This document shows positions 2-15,011 of a stretch of 64,000 nucleotides of DNA, piece after piece; within the stretch, counting starts at the first letter, position 1, and each line of letters begins with the position of its first letter. The notes below the pieces were generated by a model that worked only from the letters and a program-made list of their open reading frames with translations, made no database searches and was not told the DNA's origin. The stretch lies in assembly GCA_003345545.1 (NCBI GenBank), contig PRDH01000044.1, forward strand, positions 125,793 through 189,792, written 5' to 3'. This DNA is from Candidatus Thorarchaeota archaeon (GTDB lineage Archaea; Asgardarchaeota; Thorarchaeia; Thorarchaeales; Thorarchaeaceae). The translations under genes were made by a program, and so were the position numbers.

Positions 2-421
2 AGCAATCCAGAAGACAGAATCACTCTGATTGGAGCCACGAACCTACCGTGGGAGCTGGACTTTGCACTTCGGTCGAGATTTGAGAAGAAAATACATGTT
101 CCACTTCCTGGACGAGAGGCAAGAACAGCAATCTTTGAAACCCATATGGAAGACATCGAGGTTTCTCCGACCATTGACTACGAAGAGATGGCAGATCTGA
201 CCGAAGGGTACAGTGGTCGAGACATAAGCATCGTCTGCCGAGAGGCAGCAATGGAACCAATCCGAGACCTTCAGCGCACTGGAAGAATGGACGATGAGAG
301 AGAAATCTTGGACATCCGGCCCGTTTCAAGGGAAGACTTCTTGAGCGCCATCGAGAACATCAGACCTGCAACTCCCCCAGAGGATGTCAGGAAATACATT
401 GACTGGGCGGAGGGTTCTTAG
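2..421 (+). CDS. vps4: Vps4-like AAA+ ATPase, C-terminal part (truncated by the window edge)
   Basis: The frame is open from base 2 and reads GATNLPWELDFALRSRFEKKIHVPLP ... TEGYSGRDISIVCREAAMEPIR, which are meiotic-clade AAA (Vps4/katanin) SRH and lid motifs. It lies directly upstream of Vps25. Confidence 0.85.
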   Translation, partial: SNPEDRITLIGATNLPWELDFALRSRFEKKIHVPLPGREARTAIFETHMEDIEVSPTIDYEEMADLTEGYSGRDISIVCREAAMEPIRDLQRTGRMDDEREILDIRPVSREDFLSAIENIRPATPPEDVRKYIDWAEGS

Positions 422-424
422 AGG

Positions 425-1162
425 TTGGGCATGAGAGAGAAGCGGAAAGAGAAACGAAGAGAAGAGGCCCAGGAAGAACCAGAAGATACTGAGGTGGTCA
501 GGACAGTTCAGGAGGCAGAGACCTCCCCAGTAATAGAGGAAGACATTCACACACCCGAGGTCATCATTGGGAAGCCCGATGCGACTGAAGTAGTCTCTGA
601 GAATGAAGCTGTCACAGACGAAACCGAAGCAGAGAAACTTCAGAGCGTACCAGTCGTTTCGATGCCCCCTTGGGGTAGCCCCGAGGAGAGCGAATGGATG
701 TACGGTGTTCCTCCAAGAGAAGAGGATAGAATCTTGTGGGCAGAGGAGTGGTCAGATTATCTGCTTCAATGGGCAGAACTCAAACAGATCCATGTACTAT
801 CCCTTGCTGTGTTCATTAGTGAACCTCCTTTCAATGATTTGAGAAACAAGGTCGACTCCTTCAAGATGATTTCCGAGGTCCTCATCGATAAGGAGGTGGC
901 GGAATGGAGTGATAGGCGAAGACGCCAACTCAGAATCTTTTGGAAACCACTTGAGGACTGGGCGGACCTGATATATGAGTGGTCCCTGAGAACAGGAAAG
1001 CTAAGACTAGATGTGAAGTCCATAGTGATACAGGAGTCAAAGGAGAGCTTTGCAAAGCTTCCTGAAAGAGACCTCCATGTTGTTATGGGGTTGATGGTAG
1101 AGAAAGGATTTGCTGAGTGGATTGATAAGAAGAAGGGCGCAGTCCTGGTATCGACTCAGTAG
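425..1162 (+). CDS. vps25: ESCRT-II subunit Vps25/EAP20-like, with an acidic disordered N-terminal extension
   Basis: AEWSDRRRRQLRIFWKPLEDWADLIYEW matches the Vps25 pattern EWLDK..FLIMWRRPEEWGKLIYQW. It starts 4 bp after vps4. Confidence 0.85.
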   Translation: MGMREKRKEKRREEAQEEPEDTEVVRTVQEAETSPVIEEDIHTPEVIIGKPDATEVVSENEAVTDETEAEKLQSVPVVSMPPWGSPEESEWMYGVPPREEDRILWAEEWSDYLLQWAELKQIHVLSLAVFISEPPFNDLRNKVDSFKMISEVLIDKEVAEWSDRRRRQLRIFWKPLEDWADLIYEWSLRTGKLRLDVKSIVIQESKESFAKLPERDLHVVMGLMVEKGFAEWIDKKKGAVLVSTQ

Positions 1163-1914
1163 GCTCCTTGGTTTGAGGTTTCAGGTTTATCTCGTGCTCT
1201 GAGACCCGGAAAATAATACCTCCCGCCTGTTGAGAAACGGATATCTGCAACTGCCATTCCGGTTTCTACGAGGCTCGTGAGCACTTGACGTGCATGATCT
1301 TCGGACCATTTGAGCTGCATCATCACGTCTTCTACTGAAACATGACCTTTCGATGCTGCCAGGTTGACCACATCAGCTTGATCACGGCGGAGTTCGAGCG
1401 GCCTTAGCTCTACGACCTTCACTCCTCCACGAAGAGTCCGAATGCCAGGCAACAGACCGTTCTCTGACACCCGATTGACTGCCTCGATTACATCATTGTA
1501 TGTAACGGATTTCATCTCAGGAAGACGGCGTACGACCTCGACAATGAGCTCCGCAAGCCCCATTAGTCCCTTCGAAGCGTGCTCAGTCGCAACATCAAGT
1601 ATTGCTAAGCCAATATAATCATAGTACTGGTCAGCATTCATTCCCTGATAGGACGTTGCGGAAGCACTCTCGCGGAGCCTGAGAAGGTCAGCAGCATCTG
1701 GAAAGACCTCTGTTATCCGTTCGCCTGCAAAGAAGCCCCCGACATCCAGTCCGCTTCGCTTCAGATTATCAATATGGCTCCGCACCTCCTGAAGGAGTGC
1801 TTGTGATTCTCTCTGGAATGATCCAATATCAACAGCACCCAGGTCATACAGCTTCTTCAGCTGGTCAAGCGTGGCAATGGAGGCATAGAGTTCTGTTTCG
1901 AATCGCTCCTGCAT
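1156..1914 (-). CDS. EAP30/Vps22-Vps36 family ESCRT-II protein with a Vps28-like N-terminal region
   Basis: The C-terminal part (DQYYDYIG..GLMGLAEL..VTYNDVIEAV..PLELRRDQADVVNLAASKGHVSV..LKWSEDHARQVLTSLVETGMA..YYFPGL) is the EAP30 tandem winged helix. The N-terminal part (ELYASIATLDQLKKLYDLGAVD..F) resembles the Vps28 N-terminus. Start placed at MQERF; the ORF extends to 1980. Confidence 0.8.
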   Translation of the reverse strand: MQERFETELYASIATLDQLKKLYDLGAVDIGSFQRESQALLQEVRSHIDNLKRSGLDVGGFFAGERITEVFPDAADLLRLRESASATSYQGMNADQYYDYIGLAILDVATEHASKGLMGLAELIVEVVRRLPEMKSVTYNDVIEAVNRVSENGLLPGIRTLRGGVKVVELRPLELRRDQADVVNLAASKGHVSVEDVMMQLKWSEDHARQVLTSLVETGMAVADIRFSTGGRYYFPGLRARDKPETSNQGAY

Positions 1915-2010
1915 CGGTGATAGTTCCTTCTCTATTCTGAAAGTCCGCACAATGCTGACAAGACTCATTAAATTGCTCATGCTTTAAGTGAGAGTATTAT
2001 CTCGCTACTA

Positions 2011-13276: not shown

Positions 13277-13701
13277 AATGACTTTCTGATTCGTTTTGAC
13301 ATCCGATCCAACTCGTCTCGCGGAGCCATTGAGTCGTGATACCCTGGTGGAAACTTGAAACCAAATGGGTCGGCATTGTTTCTGGGAATCACGTGAAAAT
13401 GCAGGTGTGGCACGTCTTGCCCAGCACCCTCACCATTTGCTATGACATTGATTACACCGTCTGCTCCCGTCGCTTTCGATACTGCCTTTGTCAGCTCTGA
13501 CAGTTTCACAGACATATGAGAAAGAACATCATGGTCAACATCCATCATGTTGACAAAGTGCCTTTTCGGTATGAGTAGACAGTGTCCGGTTGTTATTGGA
13601 AAGACATCCATGAAGGCCATACAGATGTCATCCTGATATATCACGGAGGATGGCACATCACCTTGAACAATCTTGCAGAAGATACAATCCTTTGAACTCA
13701 T
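13273..13701 (-). CDS. hit: HIT family nucleotide hydrolase
   Basis: CIFCKIV, GHCLLIPKRH and GQDVPHLHFHVIPR. Confidence 0.93.
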   Translation of the reverse strand: MSSKDCIFCKIVQGDVPSSVIYQDDICMAFMDVFPITTGHCLLIPKRHFVNMMDVDHDVLSHMSVKLSELTKAVSKATGADGVINVIANGEGAGQDVPHLHFHVIPRNNADPFGFKFPPGYHDSMAPRDELDRMSKRIRKSF

Positions 13702-13820
13702 GTCTCGGTACTTTGAATAAGTGCGAAATAAAGAATTCGAAGTGCTTGAGTGACGTGCGCACAAGTCTAATTAGCGTGATTGACCCGAATGAGAATAACA
13801 GGTTACTTGGGTGCATCCTC

Positions 13821-15011
13821 TTGAGCGGAAGAAGGCCAAAGGTTTACTTCGACCAGACACAAAATGAGCGCGGAAAGCTGGACAGTACATACTCTGAACT
13901 GGGTCAAATCCTGAGGGATAACGACTTTGACGTAGAACCCTATACAGAATTCATGCTTCTTGCCAAGAATCTGAGAGAAGCGGATGTCCTGGTATTCGGA
14001 TGTCCTAATAGCTCCAAAGTACGACCTCCTGAGATAGATGTTTTGCAGAAGTACGTCAAGAATGGGGGCGGTCTGATGTTACTATCGCTCTCAGGTGGCG
14101 ATAGAGGCCTCATGAATAATATGTCACAGATATCACAGGAGTTTGGAATCTCTTTCGACAATACAGCAGTCAAGGATGACAGGAACAACGCGGGGATTCC
14201 CACCATGCCAGTCATCAGCGACATTGTCGCTCATCCGACGACCGAGAACGTGGGAGAACTTCTCATCCCTTCTGCCTGCAGCCTTCATGTCAGTGGCAAG
14301 GCAGTCGCTCTGGCCCGGACATCACAGGTGGCAGAACCAAGTAGGGCGCCCATTGTTGCAGCCGCAGAGGTTGGAAAAGGCCGTATAATGTGCATTGGGA
14401 GCTATGAGATCTTCAGAAAGGGCGGGGGTCTGAAGCACGAAGGGAATACGACATTTGCAATTAATGCATTCAAGTGGTTGAGTAGAGAACTGCAGGCAAC
14501 AAAGCCCAGCACTGCTGCCACGGAGCAAACAAAGACAGAGAGTGCCAAGGCAAGAGGGGAGCTAAGAGAGGCTGATACTGTGCCTACAGCGGAGATCGAA
14601 AAGACACTTAGAAGGCTGGTCAATGCTGTGGTTGACCTTCAGAAAGACATCTCCAAGATGAATGAACAGGTCGGGAATGTTGAATCCCATATTGAGCTTC
14701 TTAGAAGTCAGTTCCAAGAGTTTGCAGAGAAGACACAACAACAACTGGGTGTCATGATGCCAGCAAAGCAGTTCAAGACTCCCGAGGAGAATAGGGCTGC
14801 AGATATTGAGGCAGACATCAGATCCCTACTAAAAGAGACAGAATCAATTCAGCAGCTCTGCGAACATATCGAACAGAGGTATGCATCTGGAGCCATGGCA
14901 AAAGAAACCTATACCGAACAGATGGAGAGTCTAAACGCCAGAATCGTTAGTATAGGGAAGAAGATTGAGAAGAAAGAGAAGGAGCTTGAACAATTCAAGA
15001 CGGAGGGCTAA
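13821..15011 (+). CDS. GIFT/IFT52-GldG-like domain protein with a C-terminal coiled coil
   Basis: VYFDQTQNE, DVLVFGCP, EIDVLQKYVKNGGGLMLLSLSGG..NN..ISQEFGISFDNTAV, GKGRIMCIGS and N..FAINAFKWL, followed by heptad repeats. Start placed at TTG 13821. Confidence 0.75.
   Translation: MSGRRPKVYFDQTQNERGKLDSTYSELGQILRDNDFDVEPYTEFMLLAKNLREADVLVFGCPNSSKVRPPEIDVLQKYVKNGGGLMLLSLSGGDRGLMNNMSQISQEFGISFDNTAVKDDRNNAGIPTMPVISDIVAHPTTENVGELLIPSACSLHVSGKAVALARTSQVAEPSRAPIVAAAEVGKGRIMCIGSYEIFRKGGGLKHEGNTTFAINAFKWLSRELQATKPSTAATEQTKTESAKARGELREADTVPTAEIEKTLRRLVNAVVDLQKDISKMNEQVGNVESHIELLRSQFQEFAEKTQQQLGVMMPAKQFKTPEENRAADIEADIRSLLKETESIQQLCEHIEQRYASGAMAKETYTEQMESLNARIVSIGKKIEKKEKELEQFKTEG

Follow-up and report, generated by a model that had tools for sequence, protein, structure and literature searches.

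How do ESCRT-I and ESCRT-II come together in the Asgard archaea, and does the gene that adjoins vps25 in this stretch of Thorarchaeota DNA join parts of both complexes in one protein? Among prokaryotes, the Asgard archaea have the ESCRT proteins most closely related to the eukaryotic membrane-remodelling machinery, and the coupling of ESCRT-I with ESCRT-II belongs to the history of eukaryote origins. A chain that spans the boundary between the two complexes is a natural Rosetta stone for their contact. The DNA analysed here (the window) is a stretch of 64,000 nucleotides on contig C44; the genome measures 2.69 Mb and is 93% complete. An initial annotation of the window described the gene as a Vps28-like N-terminal hairpin of about 80 residues joined to EAP30 (Vps22/36) winged helices, and we follow that description here.

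The gene, which we call vps28N-vps22, most likely occupies window positions 1156-1914 on the minus strand and encodes a product of 252 amino acids. The enclosing open reading frame (1156..1980, minus strand) is longer, at 274 amino acids, but a start at 1980 was rejected because homologues are mostly 245-260 amino acids long and begin at the methionine of MQERFE (about 100 of the 120 listed), while the in-frame extension 5' of that methionine differs in length between relatives. The coordinates first assigned to the gene therefore hold, and the open reading frame coordinates also bear out the convergence on vps4-vps25 that had been described, with 7 bp (1156-1162) shared between vps25 and vps28N-vps22. 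The vps25 gene (425..1162, plus strand) is identified by its match to the Pfam ESCRT-II family (PF05871, 2.3e-13), and the 3' end of vps4 (2..421, plus strand), carrying AAA_lid_3 and Vps4_C, precedes it. Upstream of the window, the contig holds the rest of vps4 (MIT, AAA and Vps4_C in all), a divergent Snf7/ESCRT-III gene and the gene for a 536-aa protein of Znr-CC-PH-SB type that is discussed below, so that the locus reads Znr-CC-PH-SB (+), ESCRT-III/Snf7 (-), vps4 (+), vps25 (+), vps28N-vps22 (-). By gene order, then, the protein is associated with Vps25, ESCRT-III and Vps4, as expected of an EAP30/Vps22 family member. The Vps25 encoded here has an acidic, probably disordered N-terminal extension of about 100 residues, with the Pfam ESCRT-II match starting at residue 106; Asgard Vps25 proteins with extra N-terminal subdomains have been published, and the extension agrees with them.

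The winged helices are indeed present, and they are of the Vps22 type. The EAP30 core covers residues ~89-240; with the stop codon and the short disordered tail that follows the core, it takes up positions 1156..1650 (minus strand). Residues 88-224 match EAP30 (PF04157) with an E-value of 1.4e-13 and 51.5 bits, against a cut-off of 26.8, and in a profile of 20 orthologues query positions ~88-240 match both human SNF8/Vps22 (E 1.5e-19) and, less strongly, yeast Vps22 (E 8e-4). The full-length AlphaFold model (pLDDT 76) contains two winged helices, and in a Foldseek search with that model Vps22 (3cuq_A, 2e-9) comes ahead of Vps36 (3cuq_B, 5e-5). The tandem winged helices of the family are thus matched above the gathering score, but the PF04157 match spans only profile positions 82-218 of 219. 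Because it begins at position 82, the usual EAP30 N-terminal helices (profile positions 1-81) are missing from the protein.

What stands in their place is a helical domain of 85 residues (1660..1914, minus strand) with two long helices (2-24 and 30-53) and, after them, short helices as far as residue 85. When the orthologue profile was compared with 1.84 billion representative proteins, three Vps28 proteins were matched (E 9e-11, 1.5e-9 and 2e-8), each match being confined to query positions 4-89. All three are full-length Vps28 by Pfam (PF03997 at 1e-14, 2e-11 and 3e-17, above the gathering score), and for two of them there are cluster members source-labelled Odinarchaeia and Jordarchaeales. 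An HMM of the N-terminal domain alone gives 55-65 bits to these Asgard Vps28 proteins, whereas ordinary Asgard Vps22 proteins, in which EAP30 is matched along the entire profile, score at most 5 bits at their N-termini. The domain aligns with Vps28 over 85 columns without a gap, sharing the motif E.ELYA.IATLD...G.ID...Y.R....L...G.D...F...FP.A, and the best four PDB matches of its profile are yeast Vps28 N-domains (E 0.0024-0.0039). In the reverse direction, a Jordarchaeales Vps28 used as query finds the N-domain of vps28N-vps22 as its best match in the genome (E 2e-7, query positions 18-100), the one other match being a weak one to the C-terminal hairpin of a GIFT-domain protein (E 0.03). Judged from sequence, the Vps28-like pattern of residues 1-85 goes beyond what chance would produce. 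Family profiles are needed for this signal because the single-sequence match is weak or absent: residues 1-90 of the window protein match Pfam VPS28 at E 0.16, below threshold, and the full-length protein has no Pfam VPS28 match at E<=1. Sub-threshold PF03997 matches were obtained for 14 of the 20 orthologues, and one, from another family of the same order, lies above the cut-off at 26.9 bits.

Fold comparisons required some care, since the two parts of the protein are flexibly linked. In the full-length model residues 82-88 have a pLDDT below 50 and the pTM is 0.39 even though both modules are confident, which fits two modules on a flexible tether; the linker (residues ~86-96; 1627..1659, minus strand) is poorly conserved in the alignment. 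The protein consists, in other words, of two modules with a flexible linker between them, and for this reason Foldseek with the full-length model returned only Vps22 and generic winged-helix matches of high rmsd. The N-domain was therefore modelled separately, and the resulting AlphaFold (AF2) model of residues 1-90 has a pLDDT of 89 and a pTM of 0.78. Its matches at ranks 1-12 in the PDB are all Vps28 N-domains (TMq 0.57-0.75), although the Foldseek E-values for a domain of 90 residues are only 0.05-0.9. Human Vps28 (6VME) is the best match, with TMq 0.75 and an rmsd of 2.6-2.7 A over 81 columns, followed by the yeast chains 2CAZ_B, 2F6M_B, 2P22_B and 2F66_B and then by Vps23 steadiness-box hairpins.

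Could residues 1-85 simply be the ordinary N-terminal domain of Vps22 or Vps36, the one that pairs the ESCRT-II stalk subunits, with a likeness to Vps28 that any helical hairpin might show? The first 80 or so residues of eukaryotic and other Asgard Vps22 proteins are helical too, some alignments of the profile with ordinary Asgard Vps22 reach back to query positions 33-41, and the full-model Foldseek alignment with 3cuq_A extends over 233 columns. Against these points, the EAP30 profile is matched only from position 82, the N-domain HMM separates Vps28 from ordinary Vps22 N-termini by the wide difference in bits given above, and no Vps22 or Vps36 chain occurs among the top 50 Foldseek matches of the N-domain model, the first twelve being Vps28. 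Moreover, an independent HHpred analysis assigned PF03997 with a score of 99% (Makarova et al. 2024). A generic hairpin is thus a very improbable reading that has already been largely refuted. Sequence profile and fold agree that residues 1-85 form a genuine N-terminal domain of Vps28, as the initial annotation had proposed; an alignment with the ordinary Vps22/Vps36 N-helices, which that annotation had named as the outcome that would speak against it, is not what was found.

While the helical-hairpin core of Vps28 is present, the C-terminal four-helix-bundle domain of Vps28 is not, and the chain goes on into the winged helices. Neither PF03997 nor the Jordarchaeales Vps28 query detects a Vps28 C-domain anywhere in the genome (93% complete). 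The gene therefore carries a Vps28 domain and yet is not a Vps28. Comparison with the eukaryotic proteins makes the arrangement clear. The tandem winged-helix core is common to the window protein and to eukaryotic Vps22/SNF8/EAP30 (3CUQ_A, 2ZME_A, 1U5T_A), and the gene adjoins vps25; but eukaryotic Vps22 has its own N-terminal helical domain, which packs on Vps36, and the window protein has the Vps28 N-domain instead, with no separate Vps36 bearing a GLUE domain alongside the fusion. The window N-domain has the hairpin fold of Vps28 (PF03997; 2F6M_B, 2CAZ_B, 2P22_B and 6VME), with an rmsd of 2.6-2.9 A over 81-83 columns and a TMq reaching 0.75, and shares with it the motif E.Y..I.TLD...K.Y....ID...Y; a Vps23-like hairpin is its predicted partner. 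The C-terminal four-helix bundle, which in eukaryotes binds ESCRT-II Vps36 NZF or Vps20, is absent in the fusion, where the ESCRT-II core follows directly. ESCRT headpiece modules that eukaryotes have on separate chains are also joined in the UEV-Vps23-Vps28 protein of Heimdallarchaeota (Hatano et al. 2022, PMC9192718). [quoted passage not shown]

The architecture is not new, and the initial annotation overstated its novelty. Makarova et al. (2024, mBio, PMC10936438) described the fusion of a steadiness box to Asgard Vps22 proteins; in Table S3 of that paper, residues 1-70 of the Thorarchaeota Vps22 KXH75178.1 are listed under PF03997 (HHpred 99) as 'VPS28 protein (N-terminal domain - SB)'. 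Because that paper had already published the architecture, the present finding is a correct rediscovery. The published protein ('Vps22#', asCOG cog.002769; KXH75178.1 from Thorarchaeota SMTZ1-45) has N-terminal ~70-85 residues of Vps28 N/steadiness-box type followed by two winged helices, as in the window gene, and KXH75181, three accession numbers away, is an ESCRT-III protein, which is consistent with the gene order in the window. By architecture and ESCRT locus the window gene belongs to the cog.002769 steadiness box-Vps22 family. The Vps28N-Vps22 fusion is not mentioned in the bioRxiv paper on UEV-Vps23 (10.1101/2023.07.25.550441). The present analysis adds three modest points to the published fusion: a complementary phyletic distribution, with the Vps28-type N-domain fusion in the window's order and canonical Vps28 in other Asgard archaea; a proposed origin by deletion between adjoining vps28 and vps22 genes; and a named predicted partner, the steadiness-box end of the Znr-CC-PH-SB protein of the same locus.

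The distribution was examined in 301 Asgard genomes, of which 77 belong to the window's order (76 to its own family and 1 to a sister family) and 224 do not. Full-length matches to the fusion (query 1 to ~248) were found in 75 of the family's 76 genomes and in the one genome from the sister family; in other Asgard families the matches listed all start at query position 20 or later, mostly at 72-94. Conversely, PF03997 is found above its cut-off in 185 of the 224 genomes outside the order, typically over profile positions 2-188 in frames of 205-235 amino acids, and in only 1 of the 77 genomes inside it, where the match is a 410-aa helical protein and not Vps28. By this cut-off, canonical Vps28 was not found among the 77 sampled genomes of the order. 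A survey of just this kind, for the fused architecture and for stand-alone Vps28, had been suggested with the initial annotation. Of 136 homologues, which are clustered proteins from many independent assemblies, nearly all of the named ones are labelled Thorarchaeota. The fusion is, then, the typical form of Vps22 in the window's own lineage, the Thorarchaeota.

Makarova et al. treated the fusion as general to Asgard Vps22. Here, by contrast, the N-domain was detected only in the window's order and in single proteins labelled Ranarchaeia (P0130, 315 aa) and Odinarchaeia (P0131, 299 aa), and Vps22 proteins of other families (for example one labelled Baldrarchaeia) showed ordinary EAP30 N-helices. 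Both P0130 and P0131 combine a Vps28-type N-domain (26-31 bits) with the EAP30 winged-helix pair, with a linker roughly 45-70 residues longer than that of the fusion in the window's order; they may be independent or intermediate fusions. The helical proteins of about 410 residues that come near the PF03997 cut-off in relatives were considered and rejected as canonical Vps28, and probably belong to the published 'BAR-SB' family. This genome, too, encodes an all-helical protein of 410 residues (L020:1501-2730, plus strand, corresponding to G000:C37:20180-21409) that is 61% identical to the relatives' proteins, which graze the cut-off over the N-terminal half; it is not a canonical Vps28 and is probably a member of the same Thorarchaeota 'BAR-SB' family.

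How might such a fusion have arisen? Loci taken from one genome in each of three other Asgard families all have vps28 (221-303 aa) immediately 5' of vps22 (235-245 aa) in the same orientation; the two genes are 17-60 bp apart, and the Thorarchaeota N-domain HMM scores 54-68 bits on these neighbouring Vps28 proteins. The same adjacency is seen from coordinates in at least 30 further genomes. The simplest course would be an in-frame deletion that took out the Vps28 C-domain together with the gap between the genes and the Vps22 N-helices. Judged by gene order, the fusion probably arose in this way, since vps28 so often adjoins vps22 upstream in other Asgard genomes. The same adjacency of co-directional genes, with the same short gaps, might raise the suspicion that assembly or gene calling has merged vps28 and vps22 artificially. 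However, the uninterrupted frame of 245-260 amino acids recurs throughout the family, in 75 of the 76 genomes sampled, and among the 136 clustered proteins from independent assemblies; moreover, the Vps28 C-domain and the Vps22 N-helices are both missing, so that the protein does not correspond to the two complete genes read through. An artefact is refuted by this conservation and has practically no chance of being the explanation.

A candidate partner for the N-domain is encoded three genes away. It is the 536-aa protein mentioned above, whose gene (L007:11599-13206, plus strand) lies on contig C44 roughly 1.6 kb before the window begins. The protein starts with Cys-rich Zn ribbons, has a coiled coil and a conserved domain in its centre, and ends in a hairpin in which R497, G499, E504, F506, R508, Y510, L513 and S517 are invariant. 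It is conserved across Thorarchaeota, matches no Pfam family, and fits the Znr_CC_PH_SB family (cog.011556) described by Makarova et al. (PMC10936438). The assignment of its C-terminus as a steadiness box is a weak one made from sequence: Vps23_core and Mod_r (Vps37) recur there as weak matches (Pfam E 0.002 or worse), and a profile of the hairpin meets yeast Vps23 in the PDB at a non-significant E of 0.6-1.1.

Prediction of a complex between the N-domain and this C-terminal hairpin gave an ipSAE of 0.79, against 0.01 for the best of three controls. It passes a mark that 58 of 80 solved complexes and 2 of 110 mismatched pairs had reached. The runs had 100% of their contacts in common, with a partner pLDDT of at least 83. 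The predicted interface sets helix 1 of the N-domain (residues 3-29) against residues 493-522 of the 536-aa protein, and many of the residues involved are invariant or nearly so: A11, A14 and T15 are invariant and E8, S12, Q18 and L19 nearly invariant in the N-domain, and R497, E504, F506, Y510 and S517 are invariant on the partner side. Because Vps23:Vps28 headpieces have already been solved, the pass may reflect what the prediction model has learned from them, and we read the prediction as a likeness to those headpieces, with binding putative. There is a related observation from another Asgard lineage, in that a steadiness-box protein of Lokiarchaeota binds Vps22 in the two-hybrid assay (Hatano 2022, PMC9192718).

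The mechanism suggested by these observations is as follows. The N-domain would pair hairpin to hairpin with the steadiness box of the Znr-CC-PH-SB protein, as Vps28 does with Vps23 in eukaryotic ESCRT-I, and the winged helices would, from what is known of the family, bind Vps25, which in turn would recruit ESCRT-III and Vps4. Because the N-domain is fused to the winged helices and is predicted to pair with this partner, a cargo- or membrane-recognition module would be tied directly to ESCRT-II within a single chain, and the bridge formed in eukaryotes by the Vps28 C-domain and Vps36 would not be needed. Of the initial claim that ESCRT-I and ESCRT-II are hard-wired here, the single chain and the lack of a Vps28 C-domain in the genome stand as observed, while the coupling itself is an interpretation that the predicted complex favours.

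An alternative is that the Vps28-like N-domain mainly serves to homodimerise Vps22, making up for the missing Vps36, with no docking on a separate steadiness-box protein. Steadiness-box hairpins can self-associate, which would suit this reading. Moreover, Thorarchaeota Vps22 interacts with itself in the yeast two-hybrid assay, and Asgard genomes have a single Vps22/36-like gene (both PMC9192718). Heimdallarchaeota Vps22, however, homodimerises without a Vps28-type N-domain (PMC9192718), the heterotypic model is confident and has the invariant face of N-domain helix 1 in its interface, and another protein of this genome, of 784 residues with a Vps22-like winged-helix pair at its C-terminus, could be a second stalk subunit. 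On balance homodimerisation as the main role of the domain seems unlikely. The explanation that best accounts for all of the data together, and that we regard as quite probable, is a lineage-typical Vps22 in which a Vps28 N-domain has replaced the N-helices, which docks on the steadiness-box partner, binds Vps25 and arose by deletion.

The 784-aa protein is encoded elsewhere in the genome (L021:495-2849, plus strand, corresponding to G000:C19:64994-67348). Its winged-helix pair takes up the C-terminal ~160 residues, a CarboxypepD_reg-like Ig domain lies in the centre, and relatives of 760-805 amino acids match the Vps22 profile at E 1e-22 to 1e-13. It could be a Vps36-like second subunit of the ESCRT-II stalk.

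Perhaps the Thorarchaeales have gone further still and have an ESCRT system with no free-standing ESCRT-I at all. The Znr-CC-PH-SB protein would be docked on the Vps22 N-domain, a GIFT-domain protein encoded 12 kb away would maybe supply a third hairpin, and a single in-frame vps28-vps22 deletion would have produced one continuous ESCRT-I/II supercomplex. This proposal is tentative, and we would put its chances at somewhat under one half. If it were true, the lineage would be a natural experiment in which the Vps28 C-domain bridge had proved dispensable.

The GIFT-domain protein itself is a product of 453 amino acids encoded within the window at positions 13650-15011 (plus strand). An IFT52 GIFT domain (PF23355, 2e-15) is joined by a linker to a coiled coil, and the C-terminus forms a hairpin that has a weak likeness to the Vps28-N/steadiness-box type (PF03997 E 0.03-0.1; Jordarchaeales Vps28 E 0.03) and is a candidate for the third hairpin of the headpiece.
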